Shown piece by piece: positions 18,633 to 64,000 of a stretch of 64,000 nt of DNA. Under the pieces are notes generated by a model. That model ran no database searches, was not told where the DNA came from, and saw only the letters and a program-made list of their open reading frames with translations. The position numbers and the translations under genes were made by a program. This stretch comes from a virus. Position 1 is the first letter of the stretch; the number at the start of each line of letters is the position of its first letter. The stretch is from IMG/VR virus record IMGVR_UViG_3300033553_000338, positions 32,001 through 96,000 of that record. The stretch is one strand, 5' to 3'.

Positions 18633-19373
18633 TTAGCTGATTTTATCGGCCATGTCTGAAGCTTGAATTGGTGCGTTCATTTGCCGGTAGTAAGTAAGAT
18701 ATCGTTGGGTGATGGTTTCTATAATCTGCAGGATGAGCTGGTCCGGAGCTGCCAAGGCAACTATGTCCTCAACAATACCGTTGGCTACCTGGCAGCACTT
18801 GTATTCATAGATTGCATAAGGATCCCGAAACACTGCTGTAAGGGCAATGGATTTCAGGTACTCCGGAATATTGTATAGATAAGCTTTGTGGTATCCTTGC
18901 TCTGCAGATCCCAGTACCGCGTAGGGCCTGGCTGCTGAAGGTAACAATACCCTGGCCCGATGGCTCTCCCCAAAGTAAATCTTCCAGCTGTACCTGGTCC
19001 TCCGGGAATCCCCAAAGAAGGAATACAGCGGCATGCTTCCTATGCGGAGCATTTCCGGGATACGGACATATTTCACAAGGCTCCCCTCCTCATCAATTTC
19101 AAAACCACTCCCCTCACAACAATCCGATGGATCCCCTTCCAGGATATCCAAACATCCTACGGATTGACTGGCTGGGGTCATCTGAAAACCTTTGGCACAG
19201 GGGCTCCCGTCCGGGGAAAATCCTGCGGTAACCAACGTATTTCTTAACAGCTTAATCTCCTGACGAAGCTGCTCCTTCGGGATGGGTGTATTAGGACTCC
19301 CATGGAGCCCGTCCAGAACATTGTTCATGATTGCATCTGCAATGGCAGATTCTGACCAAACTATCTCATTCAT
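18633..19373 (-). CDS. tail ring/adaptor structural protein
   Basis: 246 aa, LTAVFRDP motif, position between capsid and tail genes. Confidence 0.55.
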   Translation of the reverse strand: MNEIVWSESAIADAIMNNVLDGLHGSPNTPIPKEQLRQEIKLLRNTLVTAGFSPDGSPCAKGFQMTPASQSVGCLDILEGDPSDCCEGSGFEIDEEGSLVKYVRIPEMLRIGSMPLYSFFGDSRRTRYSWKIYFGESHRARVLLPSAARPYAVLGSAEQGYHKAYLYNIPEYLKSIALTAVFRDPYAIYEYKCCQVANGIVEDIVALAAPDQLILQIIETITQRYLTYYRQMNAPIQASDMADKIS

Positions 19374-58671: not shown

Positions 58672-60282
58672 CTATAGGTCACTGAAGGCATCATCGCTGG
58701 TCTCCATTTCCTCCTTACCGGTGATCATACACTCTGTAGTGAGGATCATCCCTGCAACTGAGGAAGCATTGAGTAAAGCATTCTTTGCAACCAATGAAGG
58801 GTCAATTACTTTGGTGATTAGCATATCTCCAAAGTCACCAGTCCGTAGGTTCAGGCAAGAATGTATATCTCCCTTAAGAATCATTTCAGCAGCAGAGCCG
58901 ATGGCGTTCTTTTTGCCGGCATTTGTAAGAATGCACTGAAAGGGAGCATGTAATGCTTGCTTCATGATTTCCCAGGCGATAACGTCATGGGTGTTTGAGC
59001 TATTGTAGCTTAATACTGAAGCAGCTCTCAGGTAAGTGGCACCACCACCGGGCACAACTCCGTCTTGGATAGCCGAACGACAGGCCGCGAGAGCATCGTC
59101 AATCCGGTCAATCTTTTCGCGGATCTCAAATTCGGAGTATGCTCCAACATTGATTGTTGCAATACCCCCGGTGAACTTCGCGTAACGCTGACGGTTTTTC
59201 TTCAAGTCAAACTCATCATCTGATGAGGCTACTTGTTTTTCGATAATCTCTTTACGCAGAGCCTTAAGCTCATTGCTACCATGTCCACCAATAATGGTGG
59301 TTGAGTTTTCGGTAACGATTACTTTCTCAGCTGATCCCAGGTACACAGATTTAAAGGATCCCAACAGATAACCTCTGTCCGGGGCAAATACAGTTGCACC
59401 GGTCATAGCTGCTATGTCATCCAAAGTCTCAACGCGGTAGGAACCGTGTTCCGGTGTATGAGTAGCACAAATTTCTACAGCTCCTTTCATCCGGTTTAGG
59501 ATAAGGTTGTTTAATACTTTCTGATCGTACTCATTGGCAATGATCAGTATAGGTCTTTTTTGCTCTTTGGCATAAGTAAGTACCTGGACAATTTCAGCTA
59601 CCTTTTCAATCTTTGCCTGGCACACTAAGATCAATGGGTCTTTAAGGATACACTGTTTTTTGTCCGGAGTATTGGAAAACTGACTGTTAAGGAATCCTTT
59701 CATGTACTCCAGACCATCGGTGAAGGTCACAGTTGTTTCAAAAGATGAGGATTCACCCAGTTCAATGACCCCCTGGTATCCAATACGGGAATAGGCCTGG
59801 TAGATTAGGTTTCCGATCTCTGTATCATTGTTCGCGGATATTGTGGCCACTTCACGCAGGATGTCCAGGTCTACCGGACGTTTTACACGGTCGATAAACT
59901 CTACAATCTCCTGAACTCGCAGGTCGATGCAACGCTTAAGCTCGACAGGATTGACATCTTTTTTCAGTGCCTCCATGCCCAGCTTGGTGATTGCATGTGC
60001 TAAAACCGTAGCAGTGGTTGTACCGTCACCGGCATCATCGGAAGTCCTGGAAGCTACCTCCTTTACAATGTTAGCTCCAAGGTTCTCAAAGGGATCCTCA
60101 AGGGTAATACTTCGGGCCACAGTCACACCGTCTTTGGTAATGTGGGCTTTTCCGGAGTTTCTTTCAATAATCACATTTCGTCCCATAGGCCCTAAGGTGA
60201 CTGAGACTGCCTTTGCAAGGATGGTCAATCCACGAAGGATTGCTTCCCTTGACTCATCGTTGAATTTAATTTGTTTTGCCAT
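58672..60282 (-). CDS. groEL: chaperonin GroEL
   Basis: Start MAKQIKF at 60282; VTLGPMGRNV, ITKDGVTVA, AGDGTTTATVLA, GVVPGGG. Confidence 0.97.
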   Translation of the reverse strand: MAKQIKFNDESREAILRGLTILAKAVSVTLGPMGRNVIIERNSGKAHITKDGVTVARSITLEDPFENLGANIVKEVASRTSDDAGDGTTTATVLAHAITKLGMEALKKDVNPVELKRCIDLRVQEIVEFIDRVKRPVDLDILREVATISANNDTEIGNLIYQAYSRIGYQGVIELGESSSFETTVTFTDGLEYMKGFLNSQFSNTPDKKQCILKDPLILVCQAKIEKVAEIVQVLTYAKEQKRPILIIANEYDQKVLNNLILNRMKGAVEICATHTPEHGSYRVETLDDIAAMTGATVFAPDRGYLLGSFKSVYLGSAEKVIVTENSTTIIGGHGSNELKALRKEIIEKQVASSDDEFDLKKNRQRYAKFTGGIATINVGAYSEFEIREKIDRIDDALAACRSAIQDGVVPGGGATYLRAASVLSYNSSNTHDVIAWEIMKQALHAPFQCILTNAGKKNAIGSAAEMILKGDIHSCLNLRTGDFGDMLITKVIDPSLVAKNALLNASSVAGMILTTECMITGKEEMETSDDAFSDL

Positions 60283-60354
60283 ATTATAACTAGAATTATT
60301 ATCTAGTAAGAATATAATCAAAAATTGTCGTATAATCAATCTTAATTATTACTT

Positions 60355-61023: not shown

Positions 61024-61326
61024 ATGGATAGGATAAAAGAGTTAGTAGAACTTATAGCTATTTCAATTTTTCTTAGCCCTTGTACAGATGAAGAATTATG
61101 TGATAGGGAATTTCTAAATAATATATGCCTGGGCAATGTGCAAAGGCTTATTATGAGGTTAGAAAAAGAGAAAGCAATTTATTATAAAGGGGAAACTATG
61201 CACATTTACAGATCCTGGGCCAAGAAAAACTTAAAAGGACATGATCTTGATTTCCGCACAGAGAAGGAAAAATACTTGGATGGTATGACTACTTTTGCAC
61301 GTGAAGTTTATAAGGGTAACTTTTGA
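61024..61326 (+). CDS. hypothetical protein (possible wHTH)
   Basis: 100-aa ORF. Confidence 0.55.
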   Translation: MDRIKELVELIAISIFLSPCTDEELCDREFLNNICLGNVQRLIMRLEKEKAIYYKGETMHIYRSWAKKNLKGHDLDFRTEKEKYLDGMTTFAREVYKGNF

Positions 61327-61346
61327 GAAACTATTGCAAATTTTTA

Positions 61347-61377
61347 TTTGTATAATAGTTTTTAATGATTAAATTCG
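61347..61377 (+). promoter_or_regulatory. Bacteroidota-type promoter driving the RNA cluster
   Basis: TTTG (61347) - 19 nt - TAAATTCG (61370-61377), a near-consensus -33/-7 pair just upstream of the tmRNA acceptor piece. Confidence 0.55.
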
Positions 61378-61384
61378 TGTATTG

Positions 61385-61752
61385 TATGGCGTAAGCTATT
61401 CGATATAGTTCAATGCTACATTAAGTCGCATGTTTGGACCCGGGTTCGATTCCCGGCATCTCCACTCGTAGTCCAATTAAAAGAAGAAGTTGTCCGGGTA
61501 ATTCCCGGCTGATCTTAGGAGATTTTTGGGGTAGCCTAAGAAAGAATGACAAAAACATTTTCGGAAGTACTATAGGTACGTTATACCGGATTTGCCCATC
61601 CACGGGGATGACTGGTTTTGACAGGTGTGTAGAAGTGATGTAGGGAACACAAGCAGTTTTTTAAACGGCAAAACAATTCCATTATTTAGCAACGCGCAGG
61701 TCAGACTTGCAGCGTAGTTAACGGTTTCTCCTGGCTCCGTAATGCCGGGAAA
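61385..61752 (+). ncRNA. ssrA: circularly permuted (two-piece) tmRNA
   Basis: 3' acceptor piece (GGAC-CCGGG-TTCGATT-CCCGG-CATCTCC-A, ends 61464) lies upstream of the 5' piece GGGGATGACTGGTTTTGACAGG (starts 61604). 7-bp acceptor stem with G3:U70; tag ORF 61667-61717 GKTIPLFSNAQVRLAA*. Outer ends approximate. Confidence 0.88.
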
Positions 61753-61753
61753 T

Positions 61754-61893
61754 GGGAAAGTAGCTCAGTTGGTAGAGCTGGAGGCTGAACGCCTCTGGAG
61801 AGCCTCGGAAACACGGATGCGTGTTTTGTCAGTAAAGGCCAACGAATCGGGGGACATCCCGAAAGTGCGTAGGTTCGAGTCCTACCTATCCCA
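61754..61893 (+). ncRNA. oversized tRNA-like RNA (GAA loop) with 72-nt variable-region insert
   Basis: GGGAAAG/CTATCCC acceptor (one mismatch), GCTC-AGTTGGTA-GAGC D arm, GGAGG-CTGAACG-CCTCT arm, GTAGG-TTCGAGT-CCTAC T arm. Confidence 0.7.
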
Positions 61894-61912
61894 CAACTAA
61901 AATCAGCTATTA

Positions 61913-62100
61913 TGGTAGTTTACCCTTTAGTAGCGGATGTGCCGAATGTGACAATCTTTGCGAAATGCATTGAGATCCGGTGGTTCTATAAAATCGAAAA
62001 ACCACTGGGTAAATTAACCAAGAACACTTGCCTTAGGCCGAATTTGGGGTTCGGTAACTAAGCAAAGCACATTCGTAATCCCGGGATGGTTTATCCCGGG
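61913..62100 (+). ncRNA. unidentified structured RNA
   Basis: Several long complementary segments (see findings); no credible ORF. Confidence 0.45.
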
Positions 62101-62105
62101 TACAA

Positions 62106-62194
62106 GGAGAGTTGGGTAAGAGGCTTAAGCCACCGGTTTGCTAAACCGGCGTACAGATTAAACTGTACCGGGGGTTCGAATCCCTCACTCTCCG
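62106..62194 (+). tRNA. tRNA-Ser(GCT)
   Basis: GGAGAGT/ACTCTCC acceptor, G73, CCGGT-TTGCTAA-ACCGG anticodon arm, long variable arm, GGTTCGAATCC. Confidence 0.92.
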
Positions 62195-62205
62195 CTGAAA
62201 TGTAT

Positions 62206-62333
62206 AGGGATATGACGGAATTGGTAGACGCTAAAGATGGAGGTATGAAACAATCAAGCTGCATTGTGCATGATGTGTAGAGCATGTTAGTAATATCTGT
62301 GAAGTCGTGCAGGTTCGAATCCTGCTATCTCTT
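62206..62333 (+). ncRNA. tRNA-like RNA (Leu-type D arm) with ~55-nt insert in the anticodon arm
   Basis: AGGGATA/TATCTCT acceptor with G3:U70, GACGGAATTGGTAGACG D region, GCAGG-TTCGAAT-CCTGC T arm. Confidence 0.7.
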
Positions 62334-62345
62334 AAAATTAAACAT

Positions 62346-62519
62346 GTATGTCTGTCCCAGTTGGGGGAGCATCTGGAGCACAAGGAAAGGGAGTCATGCC
62401 CCGGAACTTGTGTTCATGTACAATACCTGGAGTTTTTGTAAAAGTGTACATATTACACAAACTCCAATCATTGTCTTATGGAAACAAAAGGATGTAGGGT
62501 TCGAATCCCTGGATATACT
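62346..62519 (+). ncRNA. oversized tRNA-like RNA with ~120-nt structured insert
   Basis: GTATGTC/GATATAC acceptor, TCCC-AGTT-GGGG D-like hairpin, TAGGG-TTCGAAT-CCCTG T arm. Confidence 0.6.
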
Positions 62520-62620
62520 CTGATACAAAAGACGGAAACAGGCATCGGTCCGGATTTGAATGGAGATACCATAGGCTTTCAGCGTAGGCTGATGATGCGG
62601 AAAACTAAGTCTTTTTATCT

Positions 62621-62687
62621 GGACCTCTATCACTTTAGAATGGTTGCCCTTGGCTCAAGGGTTCAGGTTCGATTCCTGAGAGGTCCG
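62621..62687 (+). ncRNA. undersized tRNA-like RNA lacking a variable loop
   Basis: GGACCTC/GAGGTCC acceptor, GCCCT-TGGCTCA-AGGGT arm running directly into TCAGG-TTCGATT-CCTGA. Confidence 0.55.
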
Positions 62688-62724
62688 CTTAGTTGGTTGG
62701 TTAGTTTTTTAGTGTTGGTTTTTT

Positions 62725-62798
62725 AGGTCTTTAGCTCAGTTGGAAGAGCGTTAGGTTCACCCCTAAAGGTCCCGGGTTCGAGTCCCGGAAGGCCCCCA
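62725..62798 (+). tRNA. atypical tRNA, 6-nt anticodon loop (TTCACC); isotype undetermined
   Basis: Canonical D (GCTC-AGTTGGAA-GAGC) and T (CCGGG-TTCGAGT-CCCGG) arms; TTAGG/CCTAA stem; A:C mismatch at pair 1. Confidence 0.6.
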
Positions 62799-62810
62799 AA
62801 TTTAGTAACA

Positions 62811-63026
62811 ATGTTCACAGATAAAGTAAAGACAATGACACTCTTATCAGTAATTGCAGTAATAGTTCTATACTTAACCGTCTTCTACAGTTTCATACTG
62901 CCTAAGATGATCTACAGTGAGTCTAATTTTATTGCATCAATGGGGAGTTTCCTATTCTTTACCAGTCTGATAGCACTCTTGATTTTAATTAACATTTTTA
63001 AATATTTTCTTTTTATTAATCCTTAA
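62811..63026 (+). CDS. small two-TM membrane protein
   Basis: Two hydrophobic segments. Confidence 0.45.
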   Translation: MFTDKVKTMTLLSVIAVIVLYLTVFYSFILPKMIYSESNFIASMGSFLFFTSLIALLILINIFKYFLFINP

Positions 63027-63038
63027 ATTTTATCAAAA

Positions 63039-63443
63039 ATGAAGAAGTACATTGTTGTTTTATTGCTAGTACTTAGCGCGTGTTTGATCCCGCAGATTGA
63101 CTGGGATCCTGGAGAAGGCTTGGATAAGCCTATTGTAGAAAATTGTATTGATTGCCCTGCCAGCATGGTTCAGGGGGTTACCGCGTATCAGATGATCCAC
63201 CAGGACATCAATCAGGTAGTGTATGCTCCTTTGGAGTATCAACCTTTGTCAGTGGAATCCACCGGTTTAAATCCAAAGCAAGCGACTCTACCAGAGAGTT
63301 TTCAGCGATTTCGACCCCAGAATAGTCTACAGGCGAAGTACCATCTATACAATACCATAAGCAAATTGAATCCCGAGTACATGGACCAGCATATTGATGC
63401 AACGGTCTTACGACACATTACAACTCAGGAATACCAGGTTTAG
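63039..63443 (+). CDS. secreted/lipoprotein-like hypothetical protein
   Basis: MKK + hydrophobic core + LSAC lipobox-like signal. Confidence 0.6.
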   Translation: MKKYIVVLLLVLSACLIPQIDWDPGEGLDKPIVENCIDCPASMVQGVTAYQMIHQDINQVVYAPLEYQPLSVESTGLNPKQATLPESFQRFRPQNSLQAKYHLYNTISKLNPEYMDQHIDATVLRHITTQEYQV

Positions 63444-63471
63444 CCTACAAAAGAAAGTACAATAAATAATA

Positions 63472-63503
63472 AAAATCAGGTAGGGTTTTCTCTACCTGAT
63501 TTT
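63472..63503. terminator. bidirectional terminator-like hairpin
   Basis: AAAATCAGGTAG...CTACCTGATTTT. Confidence 0.7.
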
Positions 63504-63508
63504 CACAA

Positions 63509-63671
63509 GGGGATTAAGCTGTTGGACCAGCCCGGGGAGAATGTACCTGGAGAGTGTTTGTGGAGCGTGAAGCATATCCGAGGATTTAAGATAGCCTAAG
63601 GTAACACATAACGGTGTGTGAAATACAGAATCCTAAAAGTAGCCACTGAGGTTCGAGTCCTCAAATCCCCA
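63509..63671 (+). ncRNA. oversized tRNA-like RNA with ~95-nt variable-region insert
   Basis: Perfect GGGGATT/AATCCCC acceptor, A73, GCTG-TTGGAC-CAGC D arm, TGAGG-TTCGAGT-CCTCA T arm. Confidence 0.65.
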
Positions 63672-63713
63672 CAATAATTCAGTATTTAAAATCAATCTAT
63701 TAAATAAATACTC

Positions 63714-64000
63714 ATGGAAAATCAAATTACTTTAGAATTCCCAGAAAGCACTCACTTCTTAGGCAGGAATGGAATCTCAAAATGTTCCGGCCTATGCCTA
63801 CAAAAGGCAGAGGCTGGAAAGTACCTGGCTATTTTTCCGATTAATTTAAAAAATCTCACGGGAAGCTCTCGTGTGGATATCCCTGAATCAAGTATCTCTG
63901 AATTGAAAGTTGCCTTACACAGGCTGTATCCTGAAATTTCAAATAAACCAGTCCTACCCATTAAGATCTCCCCAGAAAAACTTGAGGAGATGATCAAGCA
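63714..64000 (+). CDS. hypothetical protein, truncated by window end
   Basis: MENQITLEFPESTHF... open to the window edge. Confidence 0.55.
   Translation, partial: MENQITLEFPESTHFLGRNGISKCSGLCLQKAEAGKYLAIFPINLKNLTGSSRVDIPESSISELKVALHRLYPEISNKPVLPIKISPEKLEEMIK

Follow-up and report, generated by a model that had tools for sequence, protein, structure and literature searches.

The closest described counterparts of the four oversized elements analysed here (El1 to El4) are transfer RNA (tRNA)-like RNAs encoded by the phages T5 and T4. The elements are located within a stretch of 64,000 nucleotides (nt), hereafter the window, which comprises bases 32001-96000 of the IMG/VR virus record IMGVR_UViG_3300033553_000338, a complete record of 157,880 bp with direct terminal repeats. 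From comparison of their genes, the best-supported assignment of El1 to El4 is to the same kind of RNA as T5 RNA1 and T4 species 1 RNA, a kind that has long been known and is still unexplained. We consider with moderate confidence that they are non-decoding, tRNA-framed stable RNAs matured by the tRNA enzymes of the host. An earlier note on this DNA, which first pointed to the four elements, overstated their novelty in this respect, as T5 RNA1 and T4 RNAC are long-known stable RNAs from phage tRNA clusters with canonical T arms.

T5 RNA1 (gene rna1, T5s03, NC_005859 30501-30644, 144 nt) is described in its record as a 'tRNA-like stable RNA with unknown functions'. Like El2, it is part of a phage tRNA cluster and combines a leucine-type D region (CCGGAAUUGGUAGACGG, compared with ACGGAAUUGGUAGACGC in El2) with a CGUG junction, a canonical T arm, a paired acceptor stem and about 85 nt of unrelated sequence that replaces the anticodon and variable arms. 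The two differ in that their inserts are unrelated, in the T loop of T5 RNA1 (UUCAACU) and in the G3:U70 pair and U discriminator of El2. The frames of El1, El3 and El4, in contrast to that of T5 RNA1, are not of the leucine type; in El1 and El4 the anticodon position still has a stem-loop, and it is the variable region that is expanded.

The species 1 RNA (rnaC or RNAC, NC_000866 70908-71046) and species 2 RNA (rnaD) of T4 are stable RNAs of 139 and 119 nt respectively and stand last in the tRNA cluster of that phage. Both are expressed late, RNAC has been validated by Northern analysis and the function of the two RNAs is still unknown (PMC9697503). Like the present elements, RNAC has a canonical T arm (CCGGGUUCGAAUCCCGG), but its acceptor stem is weaker (5/7 pairs by our own reading) and it has no sequence similarity to them. 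T4 carries two such RNAs beside eight working tRNAs, whereas in the phage examined here the aberrant forms outnumber the canonical tRNAs.

Other described systems share parts of this design. Lak megaphages have 'enigmatic' predicted introns in their tRNA genes (Devoto et al. 2019, PMC6784885). Like El1 to El4, these genes are oversized, occur in phages of Bacteroidota hosts and cannot be classified by bacterial scanners; their inserts are conserved within a lineage and have no Rfam match. The Lak cases are, however, read as introns, with an anticodon predicted after their removal, whereas three of our four elements have no anticodon arm to restore, and splicing is putative in both. In transfer-messenger RNA (tmRNA), too, the top half is that of a tRNA (acceptor stem, T arm and degenerate D region) and the anticodon arm is replaced by a large insert. 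El2 even has the G3:U70 pair that is used by alanyl-tRNA synthetase but shares no other tmRNA feature, and we rejected a tmRNA identity for the elements, which match no tmRNA model and have neither a series of pseudoknots nor a tag frame that ends in the usual hydrophobic residues.

YrlA, a bacterial Y RNA, is likewise a non-coding RNA in which a tRNA-like module is joined to another domain; its tRNA-like acceptor stem is closed, and the ends of the RNA form the Ro site. The YrlA model (RF02553) was rejected as an identity for the elements, since its best match reached 19 bits against a gathering score of 69 and lies at 62662-62749, outside all four. TROVE and DUF2828 domains were not found in the phage, although the DUF2828 search matched no control genome either and therefore says little. 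In engineered tRNA scaffolds, foreign RNA is placed in the anticodon arm and is processed and stabilised by the tRNA enzymes of the cell; such constructs are artificial and show feasibility only.

The tRNA frame and its inserts

All four elements proposed in the earlier note were recovered at the positions it gave, on the + strand and with acceptor stem, T arm and D elbow (Table 1). Eight copies of the T-arm motif GGTTCGANTCC were counted in the window, where 0.11 would be expected, and none of 100 shuffled sequences reached this number. All eight copies are on the + strand between 61443 and 63660, within 2.3 kilobases (kb), and those at 61872, 62312, 62498 and 63650 are the T arms of El1 to El4. 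The acceptor stem has 7/7 pairs in El2, El3 and El4 and 6/7 in El1. UUGG, the source of the elbow residues G18 and G19, is present in the D region of every element, and the G53:C61 pair is retained throughout. Acceptor stem, D arm with G18 and G19 and T arm with a UUCRANY loop are thus present in each of the four, with the caveats of an A:A mismatch in El1, a weak D stem in El2 and the A8/U14 combination in El4. In contrast, a canonical anticodon arm (5-bp stem, 7-nt loop, U33 and purine 37) is found in none of them, and their lengths of 128-174 nt exceed the range of about 70-95 nt. Because no element has a normal 7-nt anticodon loop, none can present an anticodon in the normal way as encoded, and on this basis they should not decode.

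The inserts of El1, El2, El3 and El4 measure 72, 77, 125 and 96 nt, slightly more than the 55-120 nt given in the earlier note, and each has a different sequence. The retention of acceptor stem, D elbow and T arm around them bears out that note's description of tRNA frames carrying unrelated inserts. The insert stems it named are likewise all present, but only the insert of El3 is more stable than shuffled sequences (z = -3.1, compared with -1.0 for El1, +1.0 for El2 and -0.2 for El4). Standard searches largely overlook the elements, as had been expected. ARAGORN in default mode called 0/4, and the Rfam tRNA model RF00005 (gathering score 29 bits) exceeds its threshold for El1 only, matches a partial span of El2 below it and has no hit to El3 or El4 at E<=10. 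El1 thus matches a known Rfam family, the tRNA family itself, which is an outcome that the earlier note had named as refuting its proposal; no family besides tRNA matches any of the four at E<=10.

Table 1. Positions in the window of the four elements, their parts and the other RNA genes of the island
Feature	Position	Strand	Acceptor stem	D arm or region	Insert or variable region	T arm	Discriminator	Basis
El1, 140 nt, tRNA-Phe(GAA)-derived frame	61754..61893	+	61754-61760/61886-61892, GGGAAAG/CTATCCC, 6/7	61763-61778	61797-61868	61869-61885	A, 61893	RF00005 42.8 bits, insert placed in variable region
El2, 128 nt, leucine-type frame	62206..62333	+	62206-62212/62326-62332, AGGGATA/TATCTCT, 7/7	62215-62231	62232-62308	62309-62325	U, 62333	Comparison with clade tRNA-Leu genes and T5 RNA1; partial RF00005 22.2 bits, below threshold
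El3, 174 nt	62346..62519	+	62346-62352/62512-62518, GUAUGUC/GAUAUAC, 7/7, one G-U	62355-62368	62370-62494	62495-62511	U, 62519	Minimum-free-energy and centroid folds agree; no Rfam hit
El4, 163 nt	63509..63671	+	63509-63515/63664-63670, GGGGAUU/AAUCCCC, 7/7 Watson-Crick	63518-63531	63551-63646	63647-63663	A, 63671	Sequence and fold; terminator-like hairpin 63469-63506 just upstream
Permuted two-piece tmRNA gene, head of island	61375..61808	+						ARAGORN; RF04321 67.5 bits (gathering score 47), Rfam span 61417-61717
Canonical tRNA-Ser(GCU), between El1 and El2	62106..62194	+						ARAGORN; RF00005 50.8 bits
Fifth tRNA-like unit, 67 nt	62621..62687	+	GGACCUC/GAGGUCC, 7/7			Canonical		z -3.0
tRNA with 6-nt anticodon loop	62725..62797	+						ARAGORN 'tRNA-??? 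(ca)'; RF00005 52.7 bits

The four elements differ in how the lower half of the tRNA is replaced. In El1, the arm at the anticodon position (61780-61796) has the loop CUGAACG, with a C32-G38 pair and a pyrimidine at position 37 (C37); RNAfold draws this arm as a 6-bp stem with a 5-nt loop, and the variable region forms two hairpins. The 5' half of El1 can be aligned with tRNA-Phe(GAA) from three relatives of the phage (G009, G007 and G015, from the set described below), in which the loop reads CUGAAGA. Judged from this alignment, the frame of El1 is homologous to, or derived from, the tRNA-Phe(GAA) of the clade.

El2 has a degenerate D stem with an A10:C25 mismatch and no anticodon arm. Its insert takes the place of both anticodon and variable arms and ends, on its 3' side, in the CGUG junction typical of tRNA-Leu. 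El2 also fits the features of a T5 RNA1-type leucine frame, namely a 7-bp acceptor stem, a D region of the form GGAAUUGGUAGAC and, 65-95 nt further on, a canonical T arm preceded by a C(G/A)UG junction; this set of features is our own rather than a curated definition, and was applied by comparing El2 with T5 RNA1, the tRNA-Leu genes of the clade and 73 IMG/VR elements. The frame of El2 matches tRNA-Leu and T5 RNA1, and at the level of the gene this match shows its tRNA ancestry. An 11-codon open reading frame (ORF) in El2, with an AUG one base past GGAGG, was dismissed as probably due to chance.

In El3, a CAUCU/GGAUG stem at the position of the anticodon stem leads into a three-branch domain, and there is no variable loop. 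Its fold is more stable than those of shuffled sequences both for the whole element (z = -3.18) and for the insert alone (z = -3.08). In El4, A8 stands with U14, which reverses the usual U8:A14, and the D arm is followed by a CCGGG/CCUGG stem with a 9-nt loop (63532-63550) and then by the 96-nt region.

The 3' ends of the elements resemble those of tRNA genes of the same clade. A C at position 74 follows the discriminator in El1, El3 and El4 (as part of CAA in El1 and El4), and U is present at position -1 in three of the four. Among the 71 canonical tRNAs called in this phage and its relatives (G000-G015), every one likewise has C but none the full CCA after the discriminator, the next bases usually being AA or UA, and most oversized elements of the relatives share this pattern. 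This common possession of C74 without CCA fits a shared 3' maturation, or at least shared descent. A search of the inserts for antisense targets in the phage's own genome gave a best match of 12 nt (E 0.5), no better than that of shuffled inserts.

If the inserts were introns, excision by a host or phage activity might turn the elements into decoding tRNAs, as has been proposed for Lak megaphages. Predicted introns in phage tRNAs are on record (Devoto et al., PMC6784885), and in its intron mode ARAGORN reads El1 as tRNA-Pro(GGG) and elements of the relatives G009 and G001 as Ser(CGA) and Met(CAU), with inserts between positions 31 and 32. Moreover, the control genome of Bacteroides thetaiotaomicron encodes RtcB, and the GroEL of the phage is closest to those of Bacteroidales. 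These ARAGORN calls, however, carry no weight. We kept the frame, shuffled the interior, deleted every possible segment and counted full-length ARAGORN calls, which numbered 0-616 per 1140 deletion variants for shuffled interiors and 48-877 for the real sequences. The two ranges overlap; since calls are obtained equally readily from shuffled interiors, those made in intron mode are not evidence of introns.

The structure of the elements also argues against excision. El1 deprived of its insert would still have C37 and a closed loop, and El2, El3 and El4 offer no anticodon stem-loop that excision could restore. At 72-125 nt the inserts are too short for group I introns, which usually exceed 200 nt, as the earlier note had recognised, and the group I core (RF00028) was not matched at E<=10 in 61200-63800. 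Neither a splicing endonuclease (tRNA_int_endo, a family that matched the four archaeal control genomes only) nor RtcB nor an Rnl2-type ligase (RNA_ligase) was found in the phage. We therefore regard it as very unlikely that El1 to El4 are intron-bearing tRNA genes.

Recurrence of the design in other phages

The host record of the island is a distant crAss-like phage. Its major capsid protein carries the Crass_capsid domain, and identity is 21% with the capsids of named crAss-like phages and 36% with that of an unclassified phage from the human gut. By capsid alignment we collected 21 IMG/VR records with 32-49% capsid identity as relatives. Oversized tRNA-like genes with perfect acceptor stems recur in several of these, for example in G009 (112 nt, close to a permuted tmRNA of its own), G001 (106, 134 and 136 nt), G011 (137 and 161 nt), G006 (110 nt) and G003 (126 nt). 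They resemble the elements of the window in their frames only, and their inserts have no similarity to those of El1 to El4.

The design is also common beyond these relatives. We scanned IMG/VR for a leucine D region separated from a T arm by 65-95 nt, a spacing that excludes both the own T arm of a tRNA and that of its neighbour. At least 113 contigs matched, of which 80 were examined (L170-L249). The leucine-frame genes are 111-141 nt long, and 65 of the 80 have acceptor stems with 7/7 pairs. The acceptor AGUCAGG/CCUGACU is common to 27 of 73 leucine-frame elements examined, and the inserts that it encloses are unrelated. The 79 inserts from these 80 contigs fall into 61 clusters, and the inserts of the window have no similarity to any of the 79. 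Compensatory changes were found in one leucine-frame subfamily.

Seven leucine-frame elements (L131, located in G003 at 19168-19294, and L188, L192, L209, L236, L240 and L246) form a subfamily whose insert can fold into an H-type pseudoknot (AAGGUUA/UAACCUU and GAUAAC/GUUAUC). The stems of this pseudoknot are nearly invariant, and the sequence between them is variable.

A class I D-arm pattern matched at least 115 IMG/VR contigs, and 52 of the 80 examined (L284-L363) have 7/7 acceptor stems, at lengths of 112-141 nt. In about 20 of 39 unique class I elements a hairpin is followed, after 2-4 nt, by ACAGCAA, and changes on both sides occur at all six pairs of the hairpin. A second class I subset shares GUUACUUC. 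The ACAGCAA 'handle' module thus sits inside many oversized class I frames in IMG/VR but not in the island, as no ACAGCAA occurs in 61300-63700 and its 13 copies window-wide, against 8.3 expected, represent no enrichment. Loose look-alikes follow a hairpin in El1 (UCAGUAA) and El4 (ACAGAAU), but both break the CAGC that is invariant in 18/18 members of the ACAGCAA family, and the elements were accordingly rejected as handle RNAs.

The acceptor/T minihelix and the D/T elbow are kept selectively, the anticodon loop is lost and this design recurs across phages. The combination of conserved frame and variable insert that the earlier note saw at one locus generalises to relatives and to hundreds of viral contigs. 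One might extend this pattern to a modular system in many phage lineages, in which a few conserved, possibly chargeable tRNA frames carry fast-evolving inserts. The resulting RNAs would take part in the conflict between phage and host, for instance by decoying or inhibiting host factors that recognise the body of a tRNA, and this phage would have turned most of its tRNA array over to that use. The frames in question may be leucine-, phenylalanine- and alanine-like, types whose synthetases make little or no use of the anticodon arm. We hold this extension to be possible but unlikely.

Several observations weigh against our view of El1 to El4 as functional stable RNAs. No close homologue of the island was found by flanking proteins or DNA patterns in the collections searched. 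The acceptor stem of El1 is mismatched, El2 has a weak D stem and no C74, and the inserts of El1, El2 and El4 are no more stable than shuffled sequence. The phage also has only two other tRNA genes, whereas its relatives carry up to 22, so that the island could be a decaying tRNA array.

The searches for homologues of the island covered several of its parts. Its flanking proteins led to no island relatives in IMG/VR. The 251-amino-acid downstream protein has no homologue among 5.8 billion proteins, and the 195 homologues of the 214-amino-acid upstream protein lie on short contigs or away from RNA genes. The GroEL neighbours proved to be cellular. Frame patterns for El3, El4 and the pair of tRNA-Ser and El2 matched nothing in IMG/VR or JGI metagenomes, and in GenBank phages the tRNA-Ser gene alone matched. 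The nearest capsid relative, with 73% identity, is on a 101-kb Logan contig that by our arithmetic does not reach the island.

Under decay, the elements would be tRNA pseudogenes, remnants of a larger ancestral array that acquired insertions and are no longer under selection. The number of canonical tRNAs (two here, 11-22 in relatives), the mismatch and aberrant anticodon loop of El1, and the weak D stem and unstably folding insert of El2 would all fit such a history, and there are no homologues in which purifying selection could be displayed. Nevertheless, decay would not be expected to replace only the lower half of four genes and to leave precisely their acceptor, elbow and T-arm positions intact. 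Three of the acceptor stems are complete, all four T arms are perfect and the insert of El3 is strongly structured. In addition, distant relatives and hundreds of viral contigs show the same design, some of its subfamilies have compensatory changes, and the counterparts in T5 and T4 are annotated as stable RNAs, T4 RNAC with Northern validation. We therefore consider decaying pseudogenes an improbable explanation of El1 to El4.

The RNA island and its setting

The island spans 2.3 kb, in which two small ORFs are the only credible protein-coding genes. It begins with a permuted tmRNA, followed by El1, a structured spacer of 206 nt, tRNA-Ser(GCU), El2 and El3; after El3 come a structured domain with the 67-nt tRNA-like unit, the tRNA with a 6-nt anticodon loop, the two small ORFs and El4. 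The tag peptide that ARAGORN assigns to the tmRNA is GKTIPLFSNAQVRLAA, followed by a stop. Permuted tmRNAs are also present in the relatives G009 and G006, and no SmpB gene was found in the phage. At 58672-60339, on the - strand, the phage encodes the GroEL-type chaperonin mentioned above, which has 44% identity to its closest homologues, GroELs of Bacteroidales. GroEL homologues are present in the relatives G007 and G010 too.

The spacer between El1 and tRNA-Ser (61898-62103) has a predicted folding energy of -68.2 kcal/mol and is far more stable than shuffled sequences (z = -4.94). With neither an ORF nor an Rfam match, it is probably another structured RNA gene. In the 67-nt unit the D region is unpaired, and the place of the anticodon arm is taken by a closed hairpin of 6 bp and a 3-nt loop; a closed structured domain (62522-62619) lies directly 5' of it. 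The best blastn match of the tRNA at 62725-62797 among tRNA genes of the relatives is the tRNA-Ala of G009. In the relative G007, a CUA suppressor tRNA occurs along with two tRNAs whose anticodon loops have 8 nt (gaag and taaa). The terminator-like hairpin upstream of El4 consists of 15 pairs and a U tract; it comes after the ORF at 63039-63443, and its end lies three bases ahead of El4. The next ORF beyond El4 begins at 63714.

This arrangement would fit a role of the elements as processing marks comparable to 't-elements', in which the top half of the tRNA only recruits RNase P and 3' trimming enzymes to cut a long transcript, the ends of adjacent RNAs or mRNAs are thereby set and the released RNA has no function. 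El4 stands between the hairpin that follows one ORF and the start of the next, and El1 to El3 are packed among other RNA genes. Substrates other than tRNA are known for RNase P (PMC11143913), and t-elements of plant mitochondria (PMC1920247) provide a precedent. A processing mark, however, needs no insert of 72-125 nt, as a minihelix or a unit of the 67-nt type would suffice. The large structured domain of El3 and the covarying inserts of related families further argue that the insert matters. We thus think it quite unlikely that the elements serve as mere cutting sites.

Proposed maturation and implications

On our favoured reading of El1 to El4 as stable, non-decoding RNAs, the elements would be transcribed rightward together with the tmRNA and tRNA genes of the phage, and RNase P of the host would cleave their 5' ends. 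Host enzymes would then trim the 3' ends and add CCA. Tailing by the host is suggested by the fact that no CCA-adding enzyme was found in the phage and that C74 but not CCA is encoded in three of the four elements and all 71 tRNAs. The products may accumulate as stable RNAs of 128-174 nt, with the tRNA half providing processing and stability. The likeliest role of the lower half might be to present the insert to a partner, or to bind or titrate one of the host factors by which a tRNA top half is recognised. Taken together, the observation made in the earlier note is confirmed and its interpretation, in which tRNA frames serve to excise and stabilise RNA cargo or act as decoys or inhibitors, is partly supported.

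The same design occurs four times in a single island of a distant crAss-like phage, and our pattern scans show that such genes are common in uncultivated phages. The elements have no Rfam family of their own, and ARAGORN in its default mode missed all of them. For annotation, this means that intron calls made by tRNA scanners on genes of this type are not to be trusted. If genes of this type do prove to be functional and to use the host machinery of tRNA maturation, phages would encode a large group of small RNAs that annotation has so far passed over, and engineered tRNA scaffolds would have a counterpart in nature.

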